Assembly (NCBI GenBank): GCA_964428315.1
Contig: CAYRXT010000013.1
Location: 1 to 62,513 of the forward strand
Direction: 5' to 3'
Length of the DNA stretch: 62,513 bases
Source of the DNA: an uncultured Planctomycetales bacterium
GTDB lineage: Bacteria; Omnitrophota; Gorgyraeia; Zapsychrales; CAYRXT01
The notes under the pieces are model-generated. The model worked only from the letters and a program-made list of their open reading frames with translations, made no database searches and had not been told where the DNA came from. Below, in pieces: positions 1 through 62,513 of the stretch (position 1 is the first letter of the stretch; every line of letters starts with the position of its first letter). A program made the translations under genes and the position numbers.

Positions 1-220
1 CCGAATTCCGAATTTCAGACGGATCAGAAAAGTTTTTGTCATTGCGAGCGACCAAAGGGAGCGAAGCAATCTCATAAAGATTATTCTGACAAAGATTGCT
101 TCGGCGCTCCTTGCCGTCGCTTCTCGCAAAGACGGAGAGGGTGTACGGTCTAAGGATTCGATATTCAGGATTGGGAATTTATTCGGGATTTGGGATTTGG
201 CATTGGGAATTTTGAAATCC
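1..220 (+). repeat. Palindromic interspersed repeat (PR element), copy 1, truncated by window edge
   Basis: Matches 1681-1900 almost base for base. It contains the hairpin GTCATTGCGAGCGACCAAAGGGAGCGAAGCAATC...GATTGCTTCGGCGCTCCTTGCCGTCGCTTCTCGC. The ends are inverted: CCGAATTCCGAAT vs ATTCGGGATTTGGGATTCGG. Confidence 0.9.
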
Positions 221-27200: not shown

Positions 27201-30200
27201 ATAAATTTTCTGTGATATCCCGAAGAGACAAGGACGGCCTGATCAAGGCAATCGAGCTGGATTACAAGTGGGACAATCTCCGCCCGGCGGACCCCATGCT
27301 GGAAAATCTCGAAGAGTCCTGGAGCCGCGGCTACGAATACTACGCTGAGGGACAATTTGCGCGGGCGGACTCCTGTTTTATGCGGGTTAATTGCATCCTG
27401 TCCAAGACTCCGGAATTGCAGGGTTATATGAATGAAGTCGGGGCCCTGCGGCAGAAAATCAGGGGCCTGATGGACCGGGACGCGAAAACCGTCGTCTATC
27501 AGCGGGGCCCGGTGAGCGGTTCGATCGTGATGGGCTGGGCGCCGCTGACGGCGCGGGCGGCCGCCTGGCTCGCGGGTGATGCGGCGACACAAATCACTCA
27601 GGAGGAAGACCGGATACTTGACATGATCCGCCAGAGACGCAACGAGACGGTGCTGATTATTTATGCCCTGGTTAAATATCAGGGGGACGCGGATAAAGAG
27701 GTGCGGGCAGATATGCTGAAGGCGGAGGGCCATATCCGGTACCTGCTGGATGTCTCCACGGATCAAGAGTACTATGAGCGTCGCGTGCCGGGTGAAAGAG
27801 CCAGGTTAAGGATTATGGCAGCGGCCGCGCGGGCGGTTCAGGATATCAGGAACGTGATTTTGGAGGAAATAAACAAGAGAAGCGGCATCGCAGAGGTCCA
27901 AGCCTGGCTGAAGCGACAAAGAGATATCATCGGCCGCGGGCCCGGGCAGGCGCCGGGCAGAGGCAGTATCGACCCGCGGGAAGAGGAGATCCTGATGGCC
28001 GGCGTTGGTTCCGGACGGCGGGAGTGGTTCAAGACGGCGCTCCGGGATTTTCTCGGCCTTTTTTCGGTGTCCGAGGCGATCGCGGCGGAGGGACAGGCGG
28101 AACGTACTTGGATCCCGACCGGGGTTATGGGCGATCTGAAAGTGAAAATTCAGGACGTGCAATGTATTACGACGGACAGGGCCGTCGCGGTGGGGGGACA
28201 TCGTTTCCTCTCCTGGATGGGCGGGTTTGTCGCGCTTTCGACCGACGGGGGCCGGACTTGGCGGCGGGTCGGCGAAGAAGTCGAAGAAATGATCAACGGC
28301 ATGAACGCCGTCTATTTTACTGATGACCGGAACGGATGGGCAGCTGGAGCGAACGGTGTAATTATTTCTACGGTGGACGGGGGAGAGACATGGGCCCTGG
28401 AAGATGTCCCGACACTTAATGATGACCGGTGGCTCGGGGACGTGTTTGTCCTTTCCGGAGGAAGCGGATGGGCCGTCGGTTATTCAGGGCTTCTCTTCAA
28501 GAGGCGCGAAGGCCGATGGAGGCCACTCGGCGTGGAGGGGCTCACGGAGAACGAACATCTTCTCTCTGTCTTTTTCATGGACGAACAGCGCGGGTGGACG
28601 GTCGGGTTCTCCTCCTCTTATCGGGCCGTCGCGCTCAGAACGGATGACGGCGGACAAACGTGGCGGCATATTCAGGATATCGAAAAACCCGGCATCAGTT
28701 TGTTTTACCGCGTTTTCTTTTCCGACAGCCTCAGGGGCTGGATCATCGGCACAGGGGGATCCCTCTTTAAAACCGTGGACGGCGGAGAGACATGGAACGC
28801 GCAGACCCTGCCCGTTTCATTAAAGGATCGTGATTTTGCCGATATTGGTTTTGTCGATGAAAACACGGGTTATATGGCCGGTAATGCCGTGGCCTTCACG
28901 CGGGACGGGGGAAAGACCTGGACGGGGGAACCGACCGGACACCCCGTTTCTTTGACCGGGCTTTCCGTGTATGACAAGGGGGCACGATGGGGTGCGCTGG
29001 CATCGGATGTCGAAGGATACGTGTGGCGGCTCGTCTGGGGGCCGCCGCAGGCGCCGGGCAGGCCTATTTTTACGGATATAACAACGCAGTCGCTGACTGT
29101 TTCCTGGAGGCGGGATCCTTCCGAACGGACCCTTTTCTATAATGTCTACCGTAAGAAGGATTCGGAGGCCGCCTTTCCCGCAAAGCCGGTCGCAAAGATC
29201 CTTTCCACGGATACTTCTTATGTGGATCAAAATATTCAATGCGGTCAAACGTATGATTATCTTGTTGAGGCCGAAAACAACAGCGGGAAATTCCGGGGAC
29301 CGTCGAACCAGGTGACTGTCGACTGCCTTTGTGATTTGAGCATCAGGATGGAAGATATCCCCGAATGGGTTGAACCTGGAGCGATGGTTTCTCTCGTTTT
29401 CTCGGTTGAAAATCATGGTCCGGCCGATTGTGACACAAGTTTTGCCGTTCAATTTTCTGAAAGCTGCTGGGGGATCAATGAGGTCTTTAAGAGTGAGCGG
29501 GTCTTGGATGTTATCCGTTATGATAGCATAAAAGCCCATCAAACTTTAACGGATACTTTATACTGGTCGGCTTACTGCCAGGGCGATGATTCCTTGGATA
29601 ACGGGTATATATACTATATCGATGCTGAAGCGGATGCGTTTGATGAGGTTAAAGAATTAAAGGAGTCTAATAATCGTGATCTTGATGGAACAAACGTCCG
29701 GTGTCCGTTTCTGCCCGATTTCGCCTTTATCCCGGATAGTTTTCATGTGAACGGCGAATACCTGCATGACAACACTCTAAAGGGCGGGAGCTGTGTGATT
29801 TTTTCCATTCCCATCATTAATCAAGGCAGGATAGGATTAGATTATATATTGGAGATGGATTACATTGAAGTCTTTTGTGAAATTGATTTGAATAATGACG
29901 GCGGCGAGGCATTTCAAAGGGATGTTATTCTCAGTTCTCAGCAGGGAGAAATTTTATTGCCGGACGCGGGGTCACAAATAGACATTGTTTTCAAAAAATG
30001 GATCAATATTCCTCCGGGAACGCATATGGTCGCGTTGGAGATTTATAATGAAAATATCGACGAGTCGGATGTGGAAAACAATTATTTTACGACCTGGATA
30101 AGGGTTGAAAACATGGATAAGGATTTTTCCCTGCCGTTTTTTGATGATTTTGACACGGAAGACGCCCGGCAGTGGTGGCACGCGGACTTGCCCTGGTCGG

Positions 30201-33200
30201 TCGACAACGGCCGTTATGTGCCCGGTCATCCACAATATAATTTTGAAAAAAATGTCGTGTATGCCGGCAGCGAACAATGGACCGATTATGATTACAGGGT
30301 GACGACGGGAGGTCACGACAGTCTGATGGCGGGCCTGATCTTCCGGGACGGCGACGTCCGTCATTACAGGTTGATTTACGTAAAGAGGCCGGCGTCTTCT
30401 TTCGGGCTTTTGAGGTTGTATCAGGGAGAGCATGGATGGCCGACCTGCATAATTTTGAAAGACGCGGTGGTCCCCCCTTGCGGGGACGCGCCGGTTGAAT
30501 TGCGCGTTGTCTGCCGGGATTCCCATATCGTGGCGGGGCTCGACGGAAAGGTCTTTATTGATGTCACCGACGACTGGTCCCCGCGGGGGAACATCGGGTT
30601 GATTAATGTGGGTGATCCTTCCGGGGTATGGTTTGATTCCGTTCGCGTTACCGGTTTTGATGACGGGGCCGCTTCCGCCTTTCCTGATCTGCCGGACAAT
30701 GTGTTTGTCGGGGAAGGGCTTCCCTTTACAATGGACCTGTTTTCTCCCGGGGAATGGCAAGCCAGGTTCCTGGCCGTGGCGGAGGTGGATGCGCCCCTGC
30801 CGGGAGACCTAACCCGGGAAGAAGACAGAATAGCGTGGATCCCGCCCTATACGACCGTCGACTCCGGAGAAACAGAAGGATATCCGTTAAAGGTGCGGTT
30901 CAAAGATCGGCAGACCGGACAGGTCTTAAAACAGGAGACGGTCACGGTTACCGTCGGGGATGTCCCGCGTCAGGCCGCGTCCTTTAAAAATTTCTTGATA
31001 TCCGCCTACAGTTTTCATTTGGAGAGTCCCTATTCCTGCGATCTGGGGCTTAACGTCTGGCACCCCTATGACGCGCGGGACGCCGAACAGATGTTAAAAG
31101 AGGCCAAGGCACTCGGGGTCAAAATCATTATGGGAGGATTTCACTATGACGGCCGATGGATTGCCTGGCATGATGTTTTAACGGTTTATGCTTTGCAGGG
31201 CGTGAAAGGATTAAGGCAGATCGCCCGGCAGACTTTGAGTCGTCTTAATGAACTGGACGCGCTTTCGGAGGTGTTTGCCTTTTATCTGGTGGACGAACCG
31301 GTTTACCGTACCGATAAAGAGAGGGAAGCGGCGCGGATTCTTAACTCCTTCTTGAAAGAATGCGACCCGCAGCGGCCGGGCATTGTTTCTATGGGCGGCT
31401 ACTTGTACAGGACGCACGGCGATCTTGCTTTTGACGACCTGAATCTGAATTATTACTGGAGCAATACGTATCCGGTTTTTGCCGTCACTCAGACAGAAGA
31501 TCATTTTCAGGAAAGGTTAGATATTTACATCATTTCTTTGGAATACGATCAGAAAAGGGCTTCTGAGGCCGGCGTGTTCTTTATGGCCGGCGTGCAGGCG
31601 CACGAATGGGCGCGTTTGCAGCAGGCGCTCAGACAGACGACACCCGGAGAGATGCGTGTTCTGGTCTGGCTGGCGCTTGCTTACGGCGCCAAGGGTATCT
31701 CTTATTTTGCCTATGATTTGAGTCCGCATTATAACGCCCTTTTAGGATTGGACGGAAACCCGACGGAATGTTATTACGAGGCGCAGGATTTGAATTGTAA
31801 TGTTCTTAAACCTCTGGGTTCTGTGTTGATGAAACTGCGATGGACCGGGGCCTGGCATGTCCGCGGGCACAAGAATCTTTCCGGAGAAATGCCGTACGTG
31901 AATACTATAACCGGTACGGACGCGAATATCCAGGTCTCTTCGTTCAAGCATGCCGATGACGGGTCTTATTATATTATGCTGGTTAACAGAAATCCTGATG
32001 AAGTAACGGATGTGACCGTAACCTTTAATTCTTCCGCAGATTTTGTCTGTTTGCAGGATGTCCTTACCGCGCAGCAGATATCGCTTTCGGGGCAAAGGGC
32101 CGAAATTCATCTTGAACCGGGTTCGGGAAGGCTGCTGAAGACGCCGCTTTTTGTCATACCGGTGGAGAAAGTGGAGAAAAAAGACGACGAAGGTGAACTG
32201 CGTTTTCAGCTGCTTCAGAATTTCCCCAACCCCTTTGACGGGTCGACGAAGATCCGCTACACGCTGGAGAAGGCCGGGCGGGTCACCGTCGAGGTTTACA
32301 ACCTGCTGGGGCGCAGCGTCCGCGCCCTGGCGCAGGGCCGTCAGGCCGCCGGGGAACACGCGGTGACGTGGGACGGCCGGGACGACGCCGGGAACGAGGT
32401 CGCGGCCGGCGTGTACCTGTATGTCCTGAAGGTCGACGGCAGGGTTGTCGGCAAAAAGAAGCTGCTCCTCCTCTCGTGCGGGGAGGGGGACAGCGCGGGA
32501 CCCGACATATCCTATGCCGGCGTGAACCTCGCCGGCGTCACGGGCTTCTTTGGCAGGGCCAAGGAGGCGATTGTTAATGTGGGGGCCAAGCTCTGGGATG
32601 CAATCGACTCCAAGGCCATGGCGGAATCTTCTCTGAGGACGGTGACCTCCAAAGGCCCTTCAGGAAAGGTCGTCCCTTGCCCAAGGTTAAAGGAGGCGGT
32701 TCATTATCCACATCAAGATACGATCATTCATGAAGCCGAATATTCTTTACAGAGAAATAACCCCCTGGATTCTTATGTGGTCAGCCGGACCGTCGTCAAT
32801 CAAAAAGAAAGAAGTTATGAGCCCGGCGTGATCGCGGTTAAATTAACCCCTTCCCCCGCCGCTACTCATTACACGACGGCCCAGCCGGTCCGAAATCGTT
32901 TCCCCTCGTCACAAAGAATAGAAACACTTAACAGGACATTCGCCTTGAGCGATCCGCGGCCCTTTTTCTCGAAGGTCATCAGGGAACACATCGCTGGCAG
33001 GAGAGCGGACCGTTCATTGAGGAAAGGCAACGCTGGTCCGGCCCCCTCCGCGCACGATTTGTCGTTATGGTACATGATTGAAGTTCGGCCCGGAGAGGAA
33101 CGGGAGGCTGTCCGCCAGTACGCCGGGGCTCGAGCGATCGAACGCGCCCAGCTGATTCACAGGCACACGCGTTTTTCTCATCTGCCTTACGACACTTATG

Positions 33201-36200
33201 TCAATCCGACGGGAGACGGCGTGACATGGAGCGGGGGAGTGTTCGCGAGAATCGAATTGGAGCTGGAAGATTCATGGTGGGCCAAACGGGGAAAGGTTTT
33301 TGAGGCCAGAGAGTATTTGAGGAATAGAGGCCTGCTCGATGGTTCCCAGACAAAGATTCCCCTTGGCTTTGTCGATACGGGAATTGATCCCGACCATCCC
33401 GATCTTGAAGGAAAAGTCAGGTTTAATCCGGATGAAATTCCCGATAACGGTCTGGATGACGACGGAAACGGTTATATTGATGATTTCTGGGGATTTGATT
33501 TTAAAGGGGGAACATTTAATTCTGGAACCGGGCTTTGGATCAATGACCGGGACGGACCATACGACCTTAGCGGACACGGGACCATGACGGCTGGGATTGC
33601 GGCGGCCATTAACAACAACGCGGAAGGCATTGCCGGGATTGCGGATGGTCTTGTCGAAATTGTCGTGGCCAGGGCCCTGGGGGGAGACGGGGCGACCGAC
33701 ATTATTTTATCCAACGCGCTCATGTATCTTGCCATTCGGGGAGCGCGCATTATTAACAACAGCTGGGGGCCCGCTCAACCTGTCGCGTCGAATCCTCTGA
33801 TCGAAGACGTTATCAAGACGCTCACTTATGATTATGGAATCATGGTGTTCTTTGCCGCCGGCAACAGCGGGGTCAATGTCGAGTACGTTTCTCCGATGAA
33901 TCTGGGCGAAACTTACAGCATTACGGCGACCAATCCTTTTGATCAGTGGGAGCCGTGGTCGCCTTTTGGACACGGGCCGAACTACGGACCGTTGAACGAC
34001 CTGGCCGCTCCGGGATACAAAATCCTTTCCACCGTTCCTCCTGACGCGCGCAATCTTAATCCGTGGCAGAAGGTGCCTTATGGCAGTATGCCCGGGCTGT
34101 ATTATTGGGATAACGGAACTTCCTATTCCTCTCCCATGCCGGCCGCCGCGGCCGCGCTTGTCATAACGGCTAATCCGGAATTAAACAAGCCCACGGTTCT
34201 TAACAACATGACGATTGGTCAGATCCTTATTGATACGGCCGATTCCCTTGACGGCGAAAACTACGCCGGCACCGGGATCATCAATATGCTTAAGGCTGTC
34301 AAAAAAGATCCCGGGTCAGTTCTTCCCGCGAGAATCACGTGCCCCGGGCCGGGAGAGGTCGTTTCAGGACCGCTCGAGCTGACCGGGACAGCGGCAGGAG
34401 ACCTTTTTGAAAGCTACAGCTTATATGTTAACACCGGAGACTCATGGGAGATGATCGGCCAGACGCAAAGGGATCCCGTGGTCAACGGAGCGCTGCTTGG
34501 CTGGGACTCGGGCATGCTTTCCGACGGACGCTATCCCCTGAAGCTTGTCGTGAAAGGCGGGGACGGAAATCACAGTGAGCATCAGACGGTCTTGCAGATT
34601 CAGAACAATTATATCAGTTATCCTCAAGCGGAAGATATCTTCAACAGAAAAGATAAAATTATTATCCGGGGAAAGGTTTCTCCGGTCGATTTTGTATCTT
34701 ACAGGATTGAATATAAAGAGACGAATCAGAACGGCTGGAAGACGGAAGGGATGGTCTTACTCGATGGAGGAACGGCTGCGCCGGGCGATGATCGTCTGGC
34801 CGAATGGGATATTTCCCGCATACCCTTTGGATTATATACCCTTCGCATGAGTGTCGTCACCCGCGATGATTTAGGAACGGAGGTCGAGACGGTTATCAAG
34901 GTCCCGAGGGTGTTGATTGAAACGGCAGATGAAATACCGTCTCAGGCGGGCTGGCCCAAAAGCACGCCGACTCAATTCATGACCGCCGCCGACATAAACA
35001 ACGACGGCTATAATGAGATTCTATTCTATTCGACAGATAAGGGGAGAGGAAACGGCATTCACATGTACCTCCACGACGGCAGACCGGTGCCGGGATGGTT
35101 TGATGCGCAGGGCCGGCCCGTCCACCGCGTTGGTGCTATTCCCAAGTTTGCCGTGGGCGATGTCAACGGAGATCAGAGAGTCGAAGTGGTCGGATTTTCG
35201 GTCCATGACAGCCTTTTTGTCTTTAACGCAGAAGGAGCCCTGCTGGACAAAAAGTTCGTGGGGCCGGGTCAACGATCGAATATGCCTCACGCGGCGGCCG
35301 TCTTGACGGATCAGACCGGAGACGGAATTTTGGATATTGTTATTGCCTCGGTTGATGCCAAGCTTTATACCTTCCAGTGTATCGGTAATACGATCCAGGA
35401 GCCCTGGACTCATCTGTCGCTGCCATATGCCGAGCTTCAAGCAGCGACTCCGGCCGTGGGGAATCTGGACAACGAAGGCCTGGAAGAAATTGTTCTCAGG
35501 CCGCATAACGGACGGATTTTTGTGGTGCGCCGGGACACAATTGTGACCTCGAACGCCCAGGCCGGCCATGGAGCCGCAGCTTCGCCTGTCTTGGCCGATC
35601 TGGATAATGACGGAAAGCCAGAAATAATTCTTCCTTTAGGGCTTGAAGGCAACGGCGGGGTTATCGTTTATCAGTCTATGGACGATAAATTGCACACTAT
35701 GCCGGGATGGCCTCAATACACAAATGATCCGGGGCACACGTACACGAACGAGATTTATGCGCATCCGGCCGTCGGTTTGATCAACAGCGATCAGCATCCG
35801 GATATTCTCTGCGTTTCTTTATTTAATGAACTCTACGGTTGGAGTCATGAGGGTTACCGGATCTGGGAGGATCCTCTTCAAATCAACGGATTGGGAGGGA
35901 CGCGGGATAATCCCGGCGCTTCTTATTATAACACGCCCCTGGTGGGCGATCTTGACGGGGACAGCGTCCCGGATATCGTCGTTGGAGTAAATAATGACCT
36001 TTATATCTTCAGCTGGGTTCCGCGGGAAGGGGCGAGAGTGTCTTACGTCTTCCACCTCGAGAATTCGGGATCTTTCTTCTATGGAGGGATTATCGATGAT
36101 ATCGACAAAGACGGGGATACCGATCTTCTCATCAGCGCTATGGACGGCGTGTACGCCTGGGATTTTCCCGGCGCGTATAATCCTGAGACAGTTCACTGGG

Positions 36201-39200
36201 GGGAGTGGCGCAACGGCCCGAGAAATACAGGCCTTTACAGAGCCCCCGACTTACCGACACATGTTGTTCCGGAACAATCGGCTCCGCAAACATTCGCTCT
36301 TTCGCAGAATTATCCCAATCCGTTTAGTCTTTCCACAACCATCCGGTATAACGTTGCCGAGCCGGGCCCAGTGCGGCTGGTGGTTTATAACATTAACGGG
36401 CGGAAGGTTCGGACATTGGTCGATGAGTTACAGGAAGCCGGCACGAAGAGCGTGGCGTGGGACGGCCGGGACGACGCCGGGAACGAGGTCGCGGCCGGCG
36501 TTTACCTGTATGTCCTGAAGGTCGACGGCAGGGTTGTCGGCAAAAAGAAGCTGCTCCTCCTCGCGTGCGGGGAGGGGGGGGATGATGAGGATCCTCTGAC
36601 GCAAGGCCGGGAGAAACCGGCGGCGCGGTTTGCGTCTCCCGGAGGGATCGCGTGCATAGGCGTCTCGGTGCGGATGATGCTGTTGCGGCTGGCAAACAGC
36701 GGCAGGCTTAACGTTTTTGACGCGAAGCCGGCTAATGGGGAAAATGGGGGCCGTCCCTATTTATCCCATTTATCAGGGCCGGTTGCTCTGAACAAAAAGA
36801 GAACGTCAGCTTTTAAGGAGTTGGATGAAATCTTCGGCAGGGATCCCGGCGCCTTTGAGGATAGCCTGGAAGGTTCCCGTTTTAATGATTTTCGATCCGT
36901 GGAGAGGGATGACGCATCTGCGCCGGAGGTCGCTTTTATGCCGCATGACGACATGAGAGCCTTTTTGACGGAGGATAATGAAGCCGGCCCTGCCCAGGCA
37001 CGCGACGATCTGTTTACCGGAAACCCGCGGCAGGCGGGTCATACGGAGACCTCGACGTCTTCCACCATGACATCGATGTCTGCGGACGGGACAGGAAGCC
37101 CGTCCATGCGAAGAGATTCGACATACAGCGCTATGGCTTCCTTGATATTGGCCAGGCCTTCGGCAACGGTCTCGCCCTGGCTTGCGCAGCCGGACAGCGA
37201 GGGAACAAAGAGGCTGTATCCGCCTTCAGGATCTTTCTCGATAACAACCTTGAATCGTTTGACCATTTTTTCACCTCCGTTAAAAAATATACTACGATTG
37301 TCCGGGGAAGTCAATTCATACACTTCTCAGACACGGATAGTCCATTCGGGAAACAGGGGCCGCCCCTGTATAGCTTGCGACGCGTCGGAGAAAGACCTGT
37401 CGCCGGAGGCGTTGGCGGGGTACGTGGATTATTTCGGCGGGATCGGGGAATTCACGCCCGTCGAGGATATCTATGGACGGCTGGAGGTCCGGGAGGCCCT
37501 GTCCGCCGCCGGCCTCTTCGCCGGCGACGCGCGGGCGCGCCTGCGGGGGAAGGGCGTGCGGTTCGTGCGTCCGCCTTCAAGCTGGAACCTGAAGTGGGAA
37601 TACGGCGCGGCGGTCTATGTCGAAAATGAAAACGACATTTACATCATCCTTCCGGAGGGTACGTCCTCGCTGGTCATCGCCCACGAGATCTGGGCCGCCC
37701 TTAATCTTGATTCCGGACACGAAGACAATCCCTTTGTCATCAAAGAGCCGGGATTCCGGAAGACGCTGGTCTCGATGCTCCCGTGGGTGAAACCCGATCC
37801 CCTTGACGGCGTTGAGATCGTCAACGACTACACGCGCAAACTCATAGAAGAGAAAAGGGACTACGGCCGGGCGCTCGGGGTCTCGCTCCCGGCCTACGAA
37901 CGGTCGCAGGACGAAAAGGTCCTGCGCCTCCTCATCCCCGCGCTGGTCTTGACCAACAATATCTCGGAGGCCGAAAGCCTCTACCTGCGCGCTGCGCCCG
38001 AGGACCGGGCCGAGGTCATCGATAACCTGGCCCGCGCCCTTGTCTGGTCAGTGACCGACTACAAGAGGGGATATGAGTTAATGGCCCTTTTCCTCGCGAC
38101 GGGGGATTCGCCCGCGTCTTACATGCGTTTCATGGGCCGATTTATGAAGACGTTTTTTATCCGGTATTTCAACGGGCCGGCTCACGACGTCCATTTGGAG
38201 AATCTCGCGGCGTTTAAGGCGGGCCGGCTCCCCGCGGCGCTGACACGGGACTACGGTCCGGTCGGATCCTTCCGGGAGGGCTTCGACCCCGGCGTCTTTC
38301 CGGAGATGACGTTCGCCGTGCCCGCGGACATCGGTTCCATGAACGCGCTGGGCAGGGCCCTGTTCGCGGCGGTCCGGGACGACGCCCGGCCTCGCAAGTT
38401 CGTACGGATCGACGGCCAGGAGGGGCTGGAACTCTCCATCCTGGAAGACGACCGGGTCCATGCCGAGATGTACGGCCGCATCCACGCCTTCCTGGAAGAC
38501 GCCCGGTATCACGGTACTATCGTACAGGGCAAACACCTGCCGACGGCCCTGAACGGCAGCCGCAGATTCCTCGGCAACGATTTCCGGGGCGAGGACCTGG
38601 CCGCCTATTTCAACAAGGCGGCCGCAGACACGGTGCCCCTCGATGCGTATGAGAGGTTCCTGCTGGATTATCTTCTGAATGAAAGAGGCGTCCTGGCCCT
38701 GAACGATGACGGCGCGTACGAAAGCCGCAAGAAGTATTTCCTCGCCACGGTCTGCATGGACGGGTTTTACAAGGATTACATGAAGGAGCATCTCTTCGGC
38801 CATGAACTGCGGCATTACATGCTTTACATGTCTCCCTCTTACGAAAAAGACCTGTGGGCTGTCTGGAAAGAGGACCTCAAGGAGGAAGAAAGGGAGGTGG
38901 TGGAAGACTTCTTCCACGGCCGGGGCTACGACAAGGGTAACGGGTGGCTGATGGTCAAGGAGCTCCCGGCGTGGATCTACCATCCGGATTTTATGAAGGC
39001 GACCAAGATCCGGCCTCAGGTGGTCGAAAAACTCAAGGAGAGGGAGGACGCCGCCTTCAGGGAGATCTTTCTTAGCCGGCATGGCTCCAGCGGCGAAGAG
39101 ATGTTTGGCGAGGCCACCCGGCCGCGCGCGCGCGAAGGTTCGGCTCTCCCCGTCATCGCCGGGCCGAAGCACTGCGTCGTCAATGCGGTCTTCATGGCGG

Positions 39201-42200
39201 TGAACCTGATCCGGTCGGCGCTGTCCCGGGGAAATAGTGAAAACGGGGACGGAACCTGTTTATCGAAATCCTCCAACTTCAGCGCCGCCGAGATGGACGA
39301 GGTAGCGCGGATGCTGGAGGAGGGTGACAAGGAGGCGGCGGCGCGCGCCTGGAAGTACGCTTCGATGATGCGGGCGCTGGAGCATCAGACAGGCGGCAAG
39401 GTGATCGAGCTGGAAGGGAACCTTATTTCCTGCAATCCGCAATTAAGCACGCCCGGCGGAGGGGCCTTTGACGTGAAGAAGATCCTCGCGGTCCTGGAGG
39501 TGAGCCCGGATTACACTATTACCAGCCGCACATATCAGGATGTTCATAACCTGATCGCCGCGCTTTATGTGATTAAAAGGCTCGAGTATTATGACAAAAC
39601 AAAAGACAAACTTGCGCATGCCCGGGATGTTATCGGCTCGTGGGATGAGCTCTGGGCGCCGCTGATTGCCGGGCGGATATATTCGCCGGCGCAAGTCGCT
39701 GACATCCTGCGCGCGACCGCGCGTTTATCCCGGCTTAGGGGCGTGCCCGGCAGCGAAGAGGCGAGAAGTGTGCTGTTCCGGGCCCTGCAAACGGCGCCGA
39801 CGGCAGAGGATTCAGTGGAGACGGTGCGACGGTTATTCACGGGATGGGATTTGAAGCGTAAACTTCAACTGGCCTTGTCGTCGATGCGGGAGGTTGCGCG
39901 CGAACTGGAATTGTTCAGTATGGATTTATGGGGACCTGAACGCAAGGTGAAAGCGGTTTTGTTTTCGGCCTGGGCTTTCAGTCATAGATCGTCGCGGTCT
40001 CTGCTTTTTTCGTGGGATCTCGAGGAGAAGCTCGGGCTTGAAAATGACAGCCAATACCTGCTCCTGTCACATATTTTCGCTGCGCCGCTGGCCTCGGAGA
40101 CTTCTTTGCGCCAGATATTTGAGGGAGCCCGGGGCAAAGACGCGGCCGAAGAAATCCTGGGACAGGGATGTGTTCTCGCTATGCCTTATGCGGGAATCGT
40201 TCTTTGCCGTTTCCTTGGGGCCTTTGATATTGTCATCAAACTGATGCGGCTTCAGACGCACTGCTGTTTGATGGTTATGAAGGATGGATATGCTTTTATT
40301 TTTGACAGCGGTTATTCGACGGCCAGCCGGTCTTTCCGGTTAGAGGACTATACGGAAAGGGACGGTGAAACTTACCATTTTAAAGAGGCGTTTTTCCGCG
40401 ACGTCTGTCCCGAGGGGTGGAAACACACACATTTTAAATGGTTTAAATTGTACGATATTTACGGGTTCCCCGGATTTATACAAAACAATATAGATCTCAA
40501 TATATATAAAACAAAAACAGAAACAGAAACAAAAACAAAAACAGGTGACAGTCACCAAACAGGTGACAGTCACCGTCCGGGGACAGGGATGACCGGGCCC
40601 GGCGAGGCCACCCGGCCGCGCGCGCGCGAAGGTTCGGCTCTCCCCGTCATCGCCGGGCCGAAGCACTGCGTCGTCAATGCGGTCTTCATGGCGGTGAACC
40701 TGATCCGGTCGGCGCTGTCCCGGGGAAATAGTGAAAACGGGGACGGAACCTGTTTATCAGTTTTGAACAGCCGCCTTCTCTTTGGTGATGCGTTGCGAAA
40801 TCCATTTCTGCGGGAGTTCTCCGGGGGAGAGGCCGGCCTTGCAGGCCAGCTTGTCAAGGATCCTGATCTGCCGGGGCTTAAGGTCGAGGACGATGTGTTT
40901 GGGGCGGGGGGGCCGCGCATTTCTTGCGGGCCTGATGTCCTCCGGGAAATCCGTTATGCTGTGGGTATCCCAGAAGGCCCGCTCTTCACGGACAGATTTG
41001 AATTCCGGGGTTTTTCCGGTCTTTTTCATCCCTCTTTATATTTTGTGGATTCTATAACGACCTTTTCTGATGACAGCCAAATGACCGGTCAGATCTTGTC
41101 GAGCCACTCGGGAAAGGAAGTCGCGGAGGAGTTCGTTGATTTCGCTGATGGTAAGCAGATGGACCCTCAGGAGAATAATCCCGCAATTAGACGGGGGAGG
41201 GTACCTGAGGATATTGCTAAAATCGGTATCTCTGGTAATGAGTATACAGGAATCACGTTGAATCCTTTCGAAAATTTCTTCATCCGTGGACTGCGGATTG
41301 ATATCCCGGATATCAACAGCATCATGCCCCATAGTTTCGCACGTACTTTTAATGGACCGGGGGCAATCGGCATCGATCAGAAATCTCATAGTTTAGGAAG
41401 GTTGTTTGATAAGTTCTTGTTCGTCAGTGAGCATTGCGGCGAACAGAAGGCAGGCATGAATATCTTCCATAGTAATGGGAGCGTATTCTCTAACAACCTC
41501 TTCGAAGGGCATCCCGCAGGCAAGAGCTTCGAGAACTACATGAACAGGTATGCGTGTGGCTTTAATACATGGCCGACCATGCTGAACCGCGGGGTCGGTA
41601 GTGATGTGTTTCTCAATAAGTCTTTTATTGACCATTTTTATCCTCTTTTAATGATTCCAAATATAACATGGAATAATAATATTGTCAATTTAGAAGGGAT
41701 TTTTGATAGAAATAAAGGTGACTGTCACCGTAACCGTAAACGGCCCTACTCTCTCCTCACCGTGCCGGAGGTGTATGGGGATAATGGAGAAGAGGGAGAC
41801 GGGGGAGAAGGGGGCCGCGGGCCGCGTCCTCCGCGGCAGGGTTCTTCTGAATCTTCATTAACGCGGCCCGCGGCCCTTGACAGCTTCACGGCCGTGTGGA
41901 ACGGGGACGCATACGGGTATGAAACAGGCAGCAGCGTCCGGCTGTACGGGGACATGGAAGACCATCTGAAACAGGCCGGGCTCCTGCTGAGCGAAAGCGG
42001 CCGCGACCCGCCGGAGCGGATCACCGTTATCATCACCGCCGACGCCGAACTCTTGGGCGTTGACCCGCGGACCGGCCGGACCTACGTCATGGCCAGCCGG
42101 ACCGATCCCGACGCACGTTTCCTCATCTTCATCCACCCCTACTATTTCACCCTGCGGGAAAACATAGACGGGGAACTCGCAAGCAACCGTAACGAGTCCC

Positions 42201-45200
42201 TGAGAGGTATCTACGACGCGTACACACGTGTCTTTGAGGTACGGTTTTTGCCCCGTGCCGACTTCGCCCGTCTCCTGATGATTGAGATGCCGGCGCACGA
42301 GTTCCTGCATTTCGCGGGGATGGACGAGGCGCAGGCGCTGGAGGCCACCTTCGTCTTGAGGGAGAGACTGGTGGAGGAGAGAAGGGCGGAGGACGTCCAA
42401 TGGTATATCCGGGCGGTTAAACAACTCCAGCGGCCTGATACGCGTGAGGAGGGCCGCGTTGCTTTAATGCGCATGAGGCATAAATCTGTTGTGCCCTCCC
42501 TCCGTCTCAAAGCGGATTCGGTCCTCTGCGCGATCCCGTTCTCTCCGGACTATCCTGTGGGCTTGCGCAGGGCCGTTGTTCAGGTTGTAGAAGACGGATT
42601 GACGCGCCGGCCTTATGCCGGACGTTACGGAGAAAGAGATATCCGGCTTCTTGAGAAATTGTCCTTCGCGGAGGCGGCCGGATGGAAAGTCCGCAAAGCG
42701 GCTCTGGAAACACTAATAGGCATAGCCCGCAAACAAAACCTGGTGGTCCCCGGGCACAGAAGGACAGCCCTGGAGGGCCTGGAGGAATTCATCATATCCA
42801 TCGATGACGATAAGTTGCGACATCTTGTTTTGAAAGCGATCACCATGAATGCTTTCCGTCCATCGCTTCCGGAAAACATAAACCGAGAGAATCTTGAGAG
42901 TCTGTTGCGTCTCTATGAAGCCCTTGGGGGGTCCCTCAAGATGATTGTCCTTGAACAGCTCAAGACGGTTTCGTCTCATGTGCGTTATAACGAAGTTAAA
43001 GAGGCCCTGTTCCGGTATTTTGCCGGTCAGTTGGACGCGCGTTCTGTTCCGGACGGCGGCATGGAGACCGTCTGCGCCCTGCTCGCGCGGACGATGAGCG
43101 TCTCGTCGACAATGCTCGCGCTCGGCGACAGCCTGATCAGCGCGGACAACCAGTATTATTACGCCGTGGACCTCGGGTTCGTTCCCGGTGAAGTCCGGAC
43201 CGTTTATGAGGACGGTTTTATCCTGGCCGCGGAGCCGGACGCGGGACTGCGGCTCGGGCTGGCCTTTGCCGTGGCCAAATACCTTAACGACCACGGCAAG
43301 GAAGTCTGTCCGTCCAACATCAGTGCCTTAGGAGGGTTTGTGGCCGGTCTGAGGAAGGAATTCTCGGAAAGAGAATACATTTCACCTGAGACAGATTATA
43401 TGCTGAATATTTACGACCGTTTGGATCGCGAAGTCTGTTTTAGGGATATAGCCGGGACTTGGGCCGGCCTTTCGGCCGGGTTCATCGGGGATTCCGTGAA
43501 GATAAAGCTTGCCAGCACGGGCGGCGGGCGGGATTTGCGCAGATCCCTGAATGAGGCCGGGCGGAAGGCCCGGGAGGGAAAAATCTTTGCGGGAGTGTTT
43601 GGCCACGGTTCCGGAGGGAAAGCAGGGGCCGTGAAGAGTCTGTTTGGCAGGCTGTTTCTGGACCCGACATGGCGGGAGGCCATTGAGATCAATCAAGATG
43701 TGATCCCGGCCGGCCGGATTATGAAAGGACTGATGAGCGGAACAGCCGCTGATTCGAATAAGAAGGTGCACCTGTCGGCATGTTTTGCCGAAGACAACGC
43801 CGTGGCCTGTGCCTGGTGGATTGCCCGGCGTTTCGATGTGAGTGCGTACAGGCCTGTTGACGCCCTGATAAGCGTAACCAGTTTGAGGCAGAAGGCGCTG
43901 CCCGGTATCTATGAGGAGGCCGCGCGCTCTTTTATCGAGGATAACCTCAAGGACGGCCGAGTAAAGAATCCTAAAGGACAGTGGACGGGGCGGGATTATT
44001 TCGAGCTTGAAAAACGGCTGATAAGGCAAAGACGCTATAAGCAGAAACCGTCAATCATCATCGGGCTGACGCCCCCCCAGCGGGAGGAGCTGATAAAGAT
44101 CGAGGAGACATTGATCGACCGAGGGACGCCCAGGCCCGCGCCCCGCGTGAAGCAGTTCGGCGCCTACCCGGAGACCATCCCCGACGGGTTCATGAAGATC
44201 TCTGGTAATGTGGACAAAGACGACAGGGACAAAGGGGCCAGTCCCCGAAAGGGGACTGGCCCCTTTGATGGCCCCTTCAAGGGGACTGCGCCCGTTGCGT
44301 CCCGGTTCACCGCCAGCATCGCCGGCTCCCATGCCCTTATCTTCAACTGGCTGGCGTCGGCGCTGGGCCGGGGAGGGGAAGCGGATGTCCCGGCGCGCGC
44401 GAAAGGCGCGAGCGCGGTCGAGGACCTTTACGTCGACGACAACGCGGCCGAAAACGGGGACGGGCTGAGCGCGCGGACGGCCTTCCTGACGGTCGGTGAG
44501 GCCACCGCCTTTATCGATTCTCTGCGGCAGGCCGGGGAAGCGCAGAGAGTGACGATCCATGTTGCGGCGGGTACCTACCGGGAGCAGGTCGTTCTCGGGG
44601 ACAACACGACCCTGCGGGGCGAAGGCCGGGACGCGACGGAAATTTATCTTCCGATCAAATGGGGCGCCATGGTGCGCGTCACGGGCGTTGACGTGCGGAT
44701 CGAGGATATCGAGATTGAGATTAAACCCGTTATGGGCGGCCCGGCGGGGCTCCATGTCGAAATGCCCATGGGTCTGAACTGCGAGGTCAAAAACAGCCGG
44801 ATCGTGGCGTATATGTCCTGTGGGACGGCGGTGGTTCTTTCGGGCAGTACCGGGCTGTTTGAAGGCAATGAGGTCATCGGCTTTGACTTCGGGCTTATCG
44901 TGAATGGCCATGGATGGCTGGTAAAGGACAACTATTTTGCAGGCTCGACGTTTGAGGAAATAAGGGTGTACGGCCAAACTCTGGTCCAAGACAACACGAT
45001 TGACGGGGAGATCGCCGTTTTCACGACGCCGCAGGGCACGCCGGCCCTGCTGAAGCGGATCGAAGCCGATCCCACCCTTTTCGGCATGGACAAGCTGACG
45101 GACAAGTTTTATTACAACGAGATTTTGCGGGGCAGGTGCGCACCCGATATGCCGGACGCCCTTTCTTCCGGGTATAACGCCGAGATCAAAGGTAACCTGC

Positions 45201-48200
45201 TCAATGGCTACCTTAACCTGGCCTCGGGAAACAATTATGTCCATCATAACGTCATTCGTAACGCAGGGAAAGCCGTGGACGTGGGCTGGTGGGCGTGGAC
45301 ATGCCACGGCAACAGGATCGAATCGAACCGGATCATCGACTGCGATGCCGGCATCCTCATCCACAAGGGCCGGGGCCACGTCGTCGAGAGGAACCTTATC
45401 GCGGTTTTCGATTACGGTGTCAATATTCGCAAAGAAAACATCGAAGGGCCGACCGTGCCCGGGGACGCGCAATTTGTGAACAACACCATCGTATCGACCG
45501 GAGAGGGCGGCCGTGGCGGGATCATCGTCTGGTCAAATGGCGGCGGCAACAGTGTCACGAACAATATCATCGTCATCCATGATCCGCAGACCGGGCGTTG
45601 TGTGTCTAACAATACAGGCAGGCCTTCGGATGTGAATGTGGCCTATAATGATCTGTACCGGATTGGCTTTTCAGACGAGCCGGATCCTTACCGTGATACT
45701 TACACAAACGAGGCCGGCAATATCTACGCCGACCCGCTGTTCACGGTGGGGAGCGGTTACCGTCTTGATGCGGCTTCGCCCTGTATAGATGCGGGCAACC
45801 CGGCGATGACCGATCCCGGGACTTTTTCCCGGGCGGATATGGGCTGCTACCCCTACAGGGTTCCGCGTGAGCCGTACAGCTTAGCCATCGCTTCCATAGG
45901 GGATCAAAGGGAACGCCGGCCGTTTTGGATCAGCTTGACCGCCATTGACAGCCTGGGCTTGCCTGTAACGGGCTTTACGGGCAGGGTGGATGTGACGGAT
46001 CTGACCGGCACCCTCAGGCCGCGGATGAGCGAACCGTTCATCGACGGCCGGCTACGCCAGCAGGTGGTTGTGGACAGTGCGGCCAGGCAGGACCGGATTA
46101 TCGTGGCTTTCTCCGGCGGTAACAAGACGTTTATGTCCGAACCATTTGACGTCTTGGATGTCTACGATTTATGCCATGTTTATCTGGACGGTTCTGCCGC
46201 GTCCGGCGGCGACGGGTCGCTGGCGCGGCCTTATGACAGATTCAACAATGCCATAGCAGGTGCGGCCAAACTGGCTCTTGACTATGAGTACAGGGAGGAG
46301 GTTACGATCCATGTGTTCCCGGGAAGGTACGAGATATCCGGTTCGCTCAATATCCCTCCGATGGTCAATCTTGTTTCCTTCAGCGGGGAAGGGGCGGGTA
46401 CCGGTGATGTGGAGATCGTTACGAGCGGCTTCCCGTCAACGGGACGGCACCGTGCAGTGGAAAAATACGGTACGGGCGTTGTTCGCGGTCTTGTTTTTCT
46501 TAACGGAGACAGCGAGAAGAACGTCATAGCGCTTGAGCTCGACGCGTACGGACGGGAGACCGGGGACAGGACGACCGTGGTGGAAGACTGCCTTTTCGAG
46601 GGGTTCACGGAAAGCATCCTAGCCTATCTTAAGACCGAAGGGGACATCCTGATACAGAGAAATACGATAAGATCAAGGTGGTTTGATATCACGTATATCG
46701 GATACTCGTCTGACGAGGGAGCTCTTGTCGTGAGAAGAAATATTCTCCAGGGTGCCCACGCCGGATTTTTATATGAAGGCCGTGACGAAGAGATCCCGCA
46801 GACGGAGGTCTTGATCCACAACAATACGTTTTACGGCGAGGACGGATGGCGGGGTATTAATATCTCCGATCCCATGCCGTATGCCACCAGGATCGAGAAT
46901 AATATCCTCTGCGGATGGGAGACTCCGGTGCGGGATCCTCACTTGGTCTCCGAGGGCGGCGTTAACTACAACCTGTTTTTCGACAACACGTACGATTATG
47001 CGGGCGGTGGGACCGGCAACATCACGGGTGATCCGTTATTTGTATATGAGAAAGGGAGCGATTTCCGTCTCATGCCGCTTTCGCCCTGTATCGACGCCGG
47101 CAATCCCGATCCGCAGTACAGAGACCCCGACGGGACGCGCAACGACATCGGCCGGCATGACTGCGCGTCGCGTTACGGCTATTTCGTCGTCGATTCTATA
47201 GCGGCACAGGCGGCGGGCCGGGACTTCCGGGTCAACATCACGGCCTACAAGAGAGGGGACGCAGGGGTCTGGAAAGATTTCAACGGGCAGGCGCGGATCC
47301 TGGACCGCACCGGTGACCTTACCTGTCTTCAGCCTGTATATTTCGAGGACGGAAGATGGACGGGGACGGTCCGCGTCGAGGAACACCTGGTCGACAACAT
47401 GCTTCGGGTGGAATCTCAGGAGGGCGTGCTGGGGTATTCTAACCTTTTTAGCGTCTACGATCCGCAATGGATGACGGTTTACGTCGACACAAACGGAACA
47501 GGAGGCGCGAGCGGCCGCGCCGACGATCCGTTTTCTTCGGTCATCGAGGCCGTGTCAGCGGCCAGCACGCGGGCCGAAGAATATCATATTCCCGTCACCG
47601 TCCGCGTGAGGGGCGGCAGGTACGATATCGTTCCTCCGGCGGGAGAGTTTTACGGGTGCGTTCTCGCGGACGGCGTCAGCCTGGAAGGCGATCCTGAGGA
47701 CAGGCCCGTGTTTGTTGCCCGGCACTCGCCTTCTCAACATCTGTTGATCAGTGCGTATCTGCTGAAGAAGGGGGCGGGCAACATCAAGGACATCATTCTC
47801 TTTAACGGGGCTGACCAGGCCAATTCTTCCGGCATCAGGACGGACAGCCGCGCCCGAACGGTGATACGTAACGTTCGGGTGGAAGACTTTGCGTCGCCTA
47901 TCAGCGCGTGGCGTTTCGCGAAGGTGACGGTGGACCACTGCCTGATCGCACGCTCTCCGGTAACGGCGGGCCTGACGGCTGGCAGCGGGGACACCCTCGT
48001 CGTTCGCAACACCACCTTCGCGGACACCCGGGGCGCGGTATGCTGGCGCAGCGCCGGGGTTTACAGCGAGTTCCTTAATAATATTGTCGTGAACCGCCAG
48101 GAAGACATCTTTGTCGATCCTTCCGGTGACGCGCGGATTAGCTTCAACTGTACATATCACCTGGATTCGGGGACTGGTTACACCGGAGGGACAGGGAACA

Positions 48201-51200
48201 TCGTCCTTGATCCAGCCCTGGATGCGGAGTGGCGCCTGACCGCGGATTCGCCGTGGCAGTGCAGGCAGGGATGGCATGCCATGGGCGATACCGCCGCATA
48301 CTGGGGCTGTTATCCCTTTGTCATGACTGAGACCGAACCCGCCGTGTCTGTGCGGATTCCCGAGGAAGTTATCCTTGAGCAGAACCACCCGAACCCCTTC
48401 AGGCCGGACACGCGCATCCGTTTCGGCCTGCCCGTAGCCGGGCGGGTGACCCTGGAGATCTTCAACCTGCTGGGGCAGGAAGTCAGGACGCTCGTGGCCG
48501 GCGGGGACTATCCGGCGGGTTACCATGCCGTGACGTGGGACGGCCGCGATAACAACGGCGCGGCGGTCAGCGCGGGGATTTATTTCGCGCGCCTGCGGTT
48601 CAGGGACAAGGTGTTGACCTCCAAGATGATGATGACGCGCCTCGAGCGGGACAACGACAAAGACGACAAAGACAAAGGGGCCAGTCCCCGAAAGGGGACT
48701 GGCCCCTTTGATGGCCCCTTCAAGGGGACTGCGCCCGTTGCGTCCCGGTTCACCGCCAGCATCGCCGGCTCCCATGCCCTTATCTTCAACTGGCTGGCGT
48801 CGGCGCTGGGCCGGGGAGGGGAAGCGGATGTCCCGGCGCGCGCGAAAGGCGCGAGCGCTAGGGAAGACCTTTACACCGATGCCGACGCGGCAGGTTTCCT
48901 GGAGCTGCTTTCCGCCGGAAATTTCTACACGACGGAAGAGGCCGCCGAAATCATACGTGCCACCGACAGCCTTTCAAGCGCGCACGGCGCGCCCGATCCC
49001 GATTCTCTGAACGGGCGGATCAGGGAAGAATTGAAGACGGCGCGCACGGCCGAGGACTCTCTAAAAGCCGTATGGCAGGCTATTGAGTCGCAAGGGCTGT
49101 CCGAAAAACTCCGTTTCCAGAACGACGAAGAATATCTGCTGCTGTCGCGGGTGTTCGCCGCGCCGCTGGTCCGGGAGGAACCCTTGAAGGGTATGTTTTC
49201 CGGGCGTCCGGATGACGGGATGTTTGGGCGGCTGCTGACAGCCCGAATGCGTTCCGGAATGGCAATCAACATAGGATTAGAGGAGGCGATCCAGGGCGCC
49301 AAGCTGTCGTTTAGTGAAGGCTGTGTCTTAAATATGTTTTACGTGGCGGTCACGCTGCCGCGCCTTACCAAGGGGACAGGCCTTTATGTCCGCGTCATGG
49401 AACTGCCCGGGCATGTCTGCTTTATGCTTATGAAGGGAAAACGCGCGTTCATCTTTGACACTTCTGGGGGAATCAGCGAAGGACCGTTCCGTCTCGGACG
49501 CTATACGCAAAAGGAAGGTTCCACGTATTATTTCAACGCGGCGTTTTTTGAGGAGATTTTTCCCGAAGAATGGAAACCTCACCGAAAAGATTACACGCGA
49601 TTCCGGCTGTATGACGTCGGGAGCTTTCCCCTCTTTGGCATGAATAATATCGGCGCGATATACGACTTGATCGGTGAAAAACACCTCGCCAGGGAATATT
49701 GGGAAGGGATTATTTCAAAAGACCTCGGCCAGGTCCTTGCCCTGGAAAATCTGGGTTCCGTTTGTTTTGAGTCGGCGGCGTACGCCAAGGCCGCTGAACA
49801 CTGGTCACAGGCCCTGTCTTTGGATCCCCGGAGCGGACGGATCCGTAATAACCTGAAGAGCGCACTGCTGGGGCAGGCCTCCCGGTCCCTCCAGGAAGGA
49901 AACCATTCGCAGGCGATTGAAGCCTTTTGGCGGGTACTGGAAATCGAGCCAGGGGATTTTCAGGCCGGTATCGGATTGTCCCTGGCTTATCTTGGGCAGT
50001 ACCGGGGCGTTATCCTGTTTGTGTGTTACGGCGTTTACCTTGCGGCCGCGCTGTACTTCATTGTCTTCTGGCTCGCCCTTGCGTTCAGGCGGGCGCTCCG
50101 CGCCCTGCGCGGACTCCGGGGGAAAGGGCAAGTTGCCGATAAAGAGGCAAAAACCGGCCATCCCAACGAAGCCCAAGACATATATAACGAATGGCAGGCT
50201 CAATACGGTAATAAAGCGGATGTCATCATTTCATCTTTTGGAGAATTGGTTCTTGCCAAAGAAGGCGCCAAGCGATTTATTGAGAGAGTTATTGAGATTT
50301 TTGCGAAAGATATCAATCCCCAAGCAGAGGTGAAAGATACAATTGAGAAAGTGAAAGATACTCGTTTTAGAGAATTTATTTGGTGGCTTCTTTCGATCGT
50401 TTCCTACGGGGAACCATGGAATATGTTTATTTCTTGTTTTGCAAACGAAGATCTTTTGCGCGTCGTTATTAAACATCGTGTTCCTGCAAAGAAATTTATA
50501 GATGCCTCAGATATCTATGACAAGGCAGGGCAATCAGGCGGGAAGGCTTACCATAAAGAGTATAGAGCATTGAGAGAGAAAAGGGGAGAAGAGCCTATAC
50601 CGAAGGTCTTTGTTGGTTTTCATTCGGATTTTGAAGCTATCAATTGGAATGCAAATCTTATCAGAGGAATCGAGGAACCTTCAGGGATCAAAGGGATTAA
50701 AGGATATAAGTTGACAATTATTAAAGCAATGGTTAAAGGTGATCTTCAATATTTGTTTATCAAAACAAAGGACCAAAAATTGATTAAGGATCTTTGGGAC
50801 ATTTTTAATTTGGATGAGTGGACGAAGACAGAATTATTAAAAAACAATTTTGATAAGTTTTTGCCCGTCTATTTGCTGCAGGTTAAAGAGGTAAAGAATG
50901 TTGATAGGAAAGGGATTTTTATTTATGAATACCAGCCTTTAGTAAGGGTTCCAAGGGATGCCAGTCAAGACTTGAAGGATTTTATGGGTGCTGTGGAGAA
51001 GTACGTTTCATTTGTTGCTAGTCATTATCCTGAAAAGTTAATCAGGGATAATGGTAAGATTTCTGAAATTCTTTTCCCCACCACGGGACATTTCATGATA
51101 AATGAAGGAATACTTTTTCAGCCATCCCTGTTCTTGAACAGGTATGGGTATTGGTTGAAGGATAGAGGTTATAGATTGGCAGTGCTTGATGAGCCGATTA

Positions 51201-62464: not shown

Positions 62465-62513
62465 TAGTGACAAAAGTAACATGAAAGAAAAATGACAAAA
62501 AAATAGATTTTGT

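Follow-up and report, generated by a model that had tools for sequence, protein, structure and literature searches.

A predicted toxin-antitoxin operon lies antisense within a giant open reading frame of an Omnitrophota bacterium and contains no stop-complement codons

Proteins of the DUF433 (COG2442) and DUF5615/COG4634 (PIN-like) families form what we take to be type II toxin-antitoxin (TA) pairs, as predicted by comparative genomics; our literature search found no paper naming both partners. In this work we analysed an operon of this kind on the minus strand of a 62,513-nt stretch of DNA from an uncultured Planctomycetales bacterium (GTDB lineage Omnitrophota; assembly GCA_964428315.1, contig CAYRXT010000013.1, positions 1 to 62,513), referred to below as the window, where it lies entirely within a giant open reading frame (ORF) of the plus strand. 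The operon resembles other members of the family in its pair of domains, with the antitoxin gene first and a 3-nt gap before the toxin gene, in the size of the products (~80 and 117 aa) and in its strong promoter, and free-standing homologues of the pair occur in ordinary TA islands. It differs from them in carrying an extra third gene, which is BrnA-like, and, together with the clade to which it belongs, in its antisense position in giant ORFs and in the lack of stop-complement codons (TTA, CTA and TCA).

Among the other systems that may be compared with this locus, the Rickettsia palindromic elements are selfish, non-coding DNA of ~100-150 bp, found in frame within protein-coding genes. In both cases foreign DNA appears to be tolerated in an ORF, keeps the frame open and would be translated as an extra segment; the insert in the window, however, is ~1.2 kb long and comprises three opposite-strand genes, a promoter and a terminator. 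In chromosomal integrons, such as the Vibrio superintegron, TA cassettes have their own promoters and a stabilising role has been proposed for them. The window likewise holds several small TA operons with promoters along a long array, with hairpin-forming repeats between them, but this 'array' is a single read-through ORF, and no integrase was found in our Pfam scans. Embedded antisense overlapping genes of bacteria (bioRxiv 10.1101/2020.11.18.388249; PMC7457138) are for the most part novel ORFs of small size whose status is disputed, and the genes that contain them are well characterised. The operon in the window shares with them the placement of one gene fully within an opposite-strand gene, mostly in a codon-aligned manner; here, in contrast, the embedded genes are the well-characterised and clearly selected ones, whereas the host frame evolves almost neutrally.

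Giant genes of Omnitrophota, including a mosaic 'multi-enzyme' class, have been described in two studies (bioRxiv 10.1101/2023.11.21.568195 and 10.64898/2026.06.07.730766). The ORF in the window is of the same kind: against the at least 10,000 codons in one unbroken ORF that mark an Omnitrophota giant gene it has at least 20,820, and many distinct and unrelated Pfam domains tile the polypeptide, as in the 'multi-enzyme' class (10.64898/2026.06.07.730766). They include Sigma70 r2/r4, TPR, Peptidase_S8, three FlgD_ig, BNR, fn3, FG-GAP, NosD, FBPase and RelA_SpoT, and the whole looks like once-separate genes fused into a single frame. There is no stop in this frame from base 2 to 62461, after which three tandem stops (62462-62470) close it, whereas each of the other five frames contains 315-919 stops across the window. 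The homologues of the TA genes are also found mostly in metagenome-assembled genomes (MAGs) of Omnitrophota; the window itself contains no marker gene. On the other hand, neither of the two studies (10.1101/2023.11.21.568195, 10.64898/2026.06.07.730766) reports antisense, opposite-strand or nested genes, and in both of them TA genes figure as flanking genes only. In our literature searches we came across no account of giant ORFs with TA operons nested in them.

The minus strand at ~40500-41729 forms an autonomous unit that consists of a hairpin, a promoter, a Shine-Dalgarno site, the DUF433, DUF5615 and BrnA-like genes, a 3' stretch made of a direct repeat, and a terminator (Table 1). A three-gene antisense operon with these families and a near-consensus promoter had been proposed here in a preliminary description of the window, made from the letters alone, and the profile searches bore this out. 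The DUF433 protein matched PF04255 with an E-value of 8.5e-20 (70.8 bits, cut-off 23.6), and the DUF5615 protein matched PF18480 over model positions 1-109 of 110 with an E-value of 6.5e-21. In the predicted promoter, the -35 hexamer TTGACA (41688-41683) and the -10 hexamer TATATT (41665-41660) are separated by a spacer of 17 nt. The order and sizes of the genes also stood, and only the gaps of 4 and 7 nt had to be corrected, to 3 nt between DUF433 and DUF5615 and 6 nt between DUF5615 and the BrnA-like gene. Judging from its sequence, the minus strand at 40757-41729 is a self-contained operon of a predicted type II TA family.

The assignment of the third protein was less direct. The 90-aa product scored 24.5 bits against CopG_antitoxin (PF12441), under the 28-bit cut-off, and a word-index search with it gave no match. 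A full HMMER scan was needed, which recovered 286 homologous cluster representatives of similar length which aligned end to end, and PF12441 was matched at E <= 1e-3 by 31/31 aligned members (the window protein and its 30 best homologues), with a best E-value of 1.9e-18. By profile homology, the third protein is a real but divergent member of the CopG_antitoxin family. A BrnA-type gene usually has a cognate BrnT toxin gene adjacent to it. No BrnT-type toxin gene was found next to the BrnA-like gene in the window, where the sole neighbouring gene is that of DUF5615 and the direct repeat and terminator follow downstream, and a homologue of the BrnA-like gene was absent from all related loci examined. 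NCBIfam gave no match for any of the three operon proteins.

For the putative toxin we found 100 homologues, of which the closest were 57-63% identical and 117 aa long, several of them labelled Candidatus Omnitrophica. The toxin alignment has 21 invariant columns, including the acidic residues D6, D8, D26, D29, D36, D54 and D56. A weak match to PIN_10 (23.4 bits) was below the cut-off of 26.2, and PDB sequence searches were almost empty, with no solved relative of DUF5615 by sequence. The AlphaFold2 model of the protein showed a confident alpha/beta fold (pLDDT 91).

The three genes share one minus frame that is codon-aligned with the giant frame. Thus, the giant frame is open across them if, and only if, they contain no TTA, CTA or TCA codon, and none was present among their 25 Leu and 13 Ser codons. 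The preliminary description had suggested, as a check on chance, shuffling the synonymous codons of the genes themselves, but in codon-aligned genes that have none of the three codons such shuffling is uninformative, so it was replaced by resampling of synonymous codons from the host codon usage. In the host ORF as a whole, TTA and CTA make up 9.9% of the Leu codons and TCA 9.4% of the Ser codons; in regions below 50% GC the figures are 18.9% and 11.4%, respectively. With the overall usage the frame was open in 2.2% of trials (3.7 stops expected), and with the usage from regions of <50% GC in 0.13% (6.3 stops expected), in agreement with the earlier claim that the openness is not due to chance. 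The promoter and leader (41636-41729; 94 nt, 27% GC), an AT-rich stretch correctly described as free of sense-frame stops, had 0 stops in the giant frame as compared to 4 and 6 in the other two plus frames; 5% of shuffles of this stretch stayed open. For all seven embedded genes of the window, resampling gave a joint open-frame probability of 5e-5 to 4e-8.

To extend the comparison beyond the window, 71 loci of DUF5615 homologues were fetched, in which two classes could be told apart by TTA/CTA/TCA content. In the embedded class, 25 toxin genes located antisense in or between huge ORFs contained none of these codons among 382 Leu and 180 Ser, where 54.5 would be expected at the usage of the window host (P = 1.2e-25). 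The free-standing class, in contrast, had 109 such codons in 14 homologues (7.8 per gene; 4-12 each in free homologues of similar GC), and its antisense frame was open for just 21-96 codons. In 16 fetched loci (one genome being represented twice) and in the window, the codon-aligned antisense frame was open through the cassette for 806 to 20,820 codons, and in several fetched loci it spanned the entire 20-kb locus. An intact DUF433 gene was found upstream of the toxin gene in 10/10 embedded loci tested (E-values from 1e-18 to 1e-23), and the adjacent, co-oriented pairing of DUF433 and DUF5615 recurred in all ten as well as in the loci L001, L005 and L008. Most embedded loci had a near-consensus TTGACA-16/17-TATAAT promoter and an AGGAGG site upstream of DUF433, and HicAB, PIN_3 and VapB genes were carried on the TA strand of other embedded loci. 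As judged by sequence comparison, the recurrence of this arrangement in many related, mostly Omnitrophota, genomes indicates selection for uninterrupted giant genes.

We then asked which of the two overlapping readings is under selection. At positions 1/2/3 of the TA codons, the embedded toxins had p-distances of 0.40/0.27/0.60, with the same pattern in free copies, and pN/pS was 0.44 in the TA frame vs 0.92 in the giant frame. The loci L008 and L011 could be compared both inside and outside the cassette: across the TA genes, pN/pS was 0.23 on the TA strand vs 0.79 in the open opposite frame, whereas in a 720-nt flank within the big opposite-strand ORF it was 0.26 in the frame of that ORF, the lowest of the six frames. 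Thus, protein-level selection changes strand at the cassette boundary, and all that is required of the giant frame within the cassette is that it contain no stop. In agreement with this, no homologue was detected when the translation of 41036-41635 in the giant frame was used as a query. A comparison of the loci L021 and L061, intended to provide dN/dS at the population level, was of no use as the two were 100% identical.

The nucleotide similarity among embedded loci was limited to the cassettes. The loci L021 and L031 share 669 nt at 87% identity, from ~10 nt upstream of the -35 hexamer to the toxin stop codon; both cassettes lie within ORFs of >6,775 codons, whose giant frames share only 260 residues, across the cassette. 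This implies that a cassette with a stop-free antisense frame passed from one giant ORF to another, unrelated one. Two large clades of embedded copies were seen in a neighbour-joining tree, with two free copies (L005 and L055) nested in one of them. The tree topology suggests a long association of the cassettes with giant ORFs and occasional escape. In the escaped copies the forbidden codons are back, 5 and 2 of them, respectively, across the TA pair.

The transcript of the operon is predicted to end at an intrinsic terminator formed by a pair of palindromes (Table 1). On the minus strand the hairpin of this pair (-29.5 kcal/mol, z -3.9) is followed by a long U-rich tract, whereas on the plus strand an A-rich run precedes the hairpin and no U-tract comes after it; the predicted terminator would therefore serve the TA transcript only. 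In the giant frame the terminator region reads KTKTETETKTKTGDSHQTGDSH, and the reading across 40500-41730 includes GISGNEYTGITLNPFENFFIR.

A single copy of the same palindrome, GGTGACTGTCACC, is located at 41717-41729, 28 nt upstream of the -35 hexamer. Its presence about there had been noted before, together with a possible role as an operator, and this role could not be upheld. Besides its distance from the promoter, GGTGACWGTCACC is not specific to the operon, as it occurs in five copies in the window (the pair at 40544/40562, the single copy at 41717 and a pair at 58847/58865; 0.01 extra copies expected), and the identical 13-mer, as a pair plus a single copy, flanks a second and only distantly related DUF433/DUF5615 cassette in the locus L066. 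We consider GGTGACWGTCACC to be a flanking hairpin or terminator-like element and unlikely to be an operator; the upstream copy, together with the adjoining TTTATTTCT, looks like a weak hairpin or insulator. Other hairpins are found at equivalent positions in related loci: in L001 every TA cassette is preceded by a palindrome of 29 nt, while L014 has GGGGACWGTCCCC, and L021 and L031 have CCCCGCCAGAGGCGGGG. A 6-bp inverted repeat around the -10 hexamer, ATTCCA-N9-TGGAAT, is a better candidate for an operator than GGTGACWGTCACC, but it was not conserved in the relatives. The idea that the cassettes are integron cassettes was rejected: the flanking elements are 13-nt perfect palindromes and not attC sites (attC models were not run), and Pfam scans of the giant frame showed no integrase domain.

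The 158-nt direct repeat mentioned in the preliminary description was confirmed as two perfect copies (repeat family D10). They are 1494 nt (498 codons) apart, which preserves the frame, and the second copy overlaps the stop codon of the third gene.

Table 1. Coordinates of the antisense operon, the giant ORF and associated features in the window
Feature	Position	Strand	Remarks
Giant host ORF	2..62461	+	open from the first in-frame base of the window; at least 20,820 codons
Single GGTGACWGTCACC palindrome upstream of promoter	41717..41729	-	followed on the minus strand by TTTATTTCT
Predicted sigma-70-type promoter, TTGACA-17-TG-TATATT	41660..41688	-	11/12 matches, TG extension
Shine-Dalgarno site, AAGAGGA	41641..41647	-	read from the sequence; 5 nt before ATG
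DUF433 gene, putative antitoxin, 80 aa	41393..41635	-	codon-aligned with the giant frame; no TTA/CTA/TCA
DUF5615 gene, putative PIN-like toxin, 117 aa	41036..41389	-	codon-aligned; no TTA/CTA/TCA among 12 Leu, 8 Ser
Divergent BrnA-type gene, CopG_antitoxin family, 90 aa	40757..41029	-	codon-aligned; no BrnT partner
Direct repeat, second copy, 158 nt	40601..40758		3' untranslated stretch of the operon; overlaps TGATAA stops of the third gene
Palindrome pair, predicted intrinsic terminator	40500..40574	-	copies 40544-40556 and 40562-40574; one ~13-bp hairpin, then U-rich tract
Direct repeat, first copy, 158 nt	39107..39264		100% identical to the second
Second antisense TA operon	9097..9724	-	VapB15-like 9503-9724 (aligned), PIN_3 9097-9507 (off-frame; E 3.4e-23)
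Third antisense TA operon	36809..37266	-	HicB 37042-37266 (off-frame; E 1.7e-11), HicA 36809-37042 (aligned; E 1.3e-16)

A scan of minus-strand ORFs with a Shine-Dalgarno site, followed by HMM searches, revealed two further antisense TA operons in the window. Just upstream of each, a promoter is predicted on the minus strand: TTGACT-17-TATATT at 37314-37286 for HicB/HicA, and a promoter-like site (9781-9753) for VapB15-like/PIN_3. The giant frame is open across PIN_3 and HicB although neither of them is codon-aligned. The first 13 kb, which are rich in repeats, also contain a degenerate VapB/PIN_3 copy at 4186-4435 (minus strand), with fragments 57% and 63% identical; it has the look of an embedded cassette in decay. 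No match was obtained when the whole window was scanned for Rfam families and tRNAs.

Similar arrangements were observed in the related loci. Four TA cassettes follow one another at L001 5645-7922, among them DUF433/DUF5615, HicBA, and an unannotated gene paired with HicA. The same ~70-nt repeat, which contains the 29-nt perfect palindrome, precedes each of them, and the group is flanked by two opposite-strand genes, one of at least 1868 codons and the other of at least 860. The second DUF433/DUF5615-like cassette of L066 (3256-4564) is in the same giant ORF as the cassette at 10 kb, and direct repeats of ~110 nt are found just inside the palindromes that bracket it. In L054, residues 2330-2559 of the giant frame resemble residues 5256-5450 and 5702-5930 of L065 (200-230 aa, 44-52% identity); this common segment, away from the DUF5615 cassette in otherwise unrelated ORFs, may be another embedded cassette or domain.

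The giant ORF of the window is itself a mosaic. It encodes a complete sigma-70-like factor (r2 and r4), both N- and C-terminal FBPase domains, RelA_SpoT and Peptidase_S8, and its three FlgD_ig/sorting-type domains are internal, while such domains normally end proteins; the GC content per 500-nt block varies from 0.37 to 0.70. At 26366-26629 it contains a segment of 132 nt (44 codons) that is perfectly duplicated, in tandem and in frame. Over positions 1-12800, direct-repeat families D1-D5, D9 and D14-D16 (100-300 nt, 80-100% identity) are read through in frame and would provide ample substrate for recombination inside the giant gene. The palindrome pair at 58842-58882 (GGTGACTGTCACC), also inside the giant ORF, forms a longer stem of 18 bp, ccccaGGTGAC...GTCACCtgggg. 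We could recognise no antisense gene near this pair, and the three neighbouring minus-strand ORFs were without a Pfam match.

Taken as a whole, we find it likely that the locus is a predicted TA operon nested antisense in a giant ORF that is translated through it, and that it derives from TA lineages which live in such ORFs. The TA operon would be transcribed from its own strong minus-strand promoter and stopped by a terminator that acts on the minus strand only. The giant gene would be translated from end to end, so that only insertions leaving the ORF open survive; TTA, CTA and TCA would have been purged from the TA genes, and stops from the promoter, leader and terminator DNA. The antisense, codon-aligned placement could be the cheapest route to an open frame, because the giant frame then has Leu or Ser where the TA genes stop, and no more than three codons have to be avoided. 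The giant protein would carry ~410 residues of the cassette as a passenger linker at a module junction. On one side of the cassette is a module whose paralogues are found at 18-20 kb and 49.5 kb (families D6 and D13), and on the other an 'RPYSLLTVPE' module that is also found earlier in the ORF. The cassette itself would be primarily a selfish or addictive passenger.

Several observations weigh against this interpretation. For the window cassette alone, the openness of the frame is only moderately improbable (P ~0.02 at overall usage). Stops are present beside the cassette in 9 zero-codon loci, where it is located between two big opposite-strand ORFs, and thus the continuity of the ORF is not universal. 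The zero-codon class is partly defined by the very property that is to be explained; an independent classification based on the 3-kb flanks only, with the TA region ignored, found a flank covered to at least 84% by a single opposite-strand ORF in 19/24 zero-codon loci vs 1/15 others (Fisher P = 1e-5), which lessens the circularity and does not remove it. No empty-site allele was found, and we infer the insertion rather than observe it. Finally, a Foldseek search of the DUF5615 model against the PDB gave no hit at E <= 1e-3 (best 0.017), and the PIN fold was not recovered.

Alternatively, the cassettes could benefit the host as stabilisers, in that cells which lose segments of the giant gene by recombination between repeats would be killed. 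This explanation is compatible with the nested-operon structure and differs only in the beneficiary, and we regard it as rather unlikely. That 62.5 kb should contain three TA operons in intact form, plus a remnant, in an ORF full of long direct repeats including the perfect 158-nt pair beside the cassette, would fit such a role, as would the recurrence of TA islands in other giant ORFs and an association at the level of clades that appears to be long-lived. However, selfish cassettes would give the same pattern if selection on the giant gene determined which of them persist, and movement between unrelated ORFs fits a selfish element better.

It is less probable still that the two strands are coupled in regulation by convergent transcription, through polymerase collision or dsRNA, with toxin activity reporting on or controlling the expression of the giant gene. 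The near-consensus promoter does face the transcription of the giant gene, and with a terminator that serves the TA strand alone the antisense RNA would be no longer than ~1.2 kb, which suggests that antisense transcription is under active management. This argument is, however, purely inferential: the terminator may equally be explained as damage limitation, and no conserved regulatory element linking the strands was found, and the inverted repeat at the -10 hexamer is not conserved in the relatives.

We consider it very improbable that the giant ORF is in fact several adjacent genes, or an artefact of assembly or gene calling, and that the cassette is intergenic. In the 9 related loci with stops flanking the cassette, gene callers divide the big ORF at this place; the window ORF includes three FlgD_ig domains, which normally stand at the end of a protein, as well as enzymes typical of the cytoplasm; and the perfect 158-nt repeat could mislead an assembler. 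However, 62,460 nt without a stop stand against 315-919 stops in each other frame, ~16 independent assemblies read through the cassette for 806 to 6,783 codons, purifying selection is seen in the flank of a related ORF, in the frame of that ORF, and the purge of stops in antisense genes makes sense only if the frame is read. There is hardly more room, indeed even less, for the view that the TA genes are dead relics and the giant plus frame is the sole functional reading. The giant frame is open and the CopG-like gene is divergent and without its usual partner, but the operon consists of intact ORFs, promoters and SD sites are conserved, pN/pS is 0.44 on the TA strand vs 0.92 in the giant frame (0.23 vs 0.79 for L008/L011), and the toxins keep 21 invariant columns with their acidic residues, whereas the giant-frame translation has no homologue.

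The weakest explanation, chance or codon bias against TTA, CTA and TCA, can practically be set aside, since the 2.2% of resamplings that stay open for the window cassette alone and the general paucity of stops in codon-aligned antisense frames (315 in the aligned minus frame vs 599 and 919 in the other two minus frames) have to be set against a host that uses these codons for ~10% of Leu and Ser, seven embedded genes and AT-rich regulatory DNA that are all open, and 25 homologues with zero such codons (P 1e-25) where free homologues have 4-12 each.

On a more speculative level, it is conceivable, though we would sooner doubt it, that TA lineages have co-evolved with the giant genes of Omnitrophota as mobile cassettes that preserve the ORF, and are working components of the giant-gene system, acting as anchors against deletion or as sentinels; with a sentinel cassette, the survival of the cell would depend on whether the giant gene is intact or expressed. 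In a more radical version, and with the same reserve, giant ORFs may be ordinary stretches of genome purged of the stops of one frame. They would then contain operons on both strands, promoters, terminators and REP-like (repeated extragenic palindrome) repeats, with continuous translation as the selected trait.

These findings bear on the question of whether bacterial ORFs with tens of thousands of codons are translated over their whole length. Stop-free antisense genes, promoters and terminators in about two dozen independent assemblies amount to population-genetic evidence for selected continuity of the frame, and this evidence is independent of gene prediction. Annotation pipelines that forbid overlaps would miss such TA operons entirely, as illustrated by the window toxin and antitoxin, for which exact-sequence look-ups returned no record as called genes. 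The locus also offers a natural example of two-strand coding, in which one reading is under protein-level selection and the other is only barred from stopping. For the TA family, the cassettes point to mobile units whose codon usage is shaped by the host gene.

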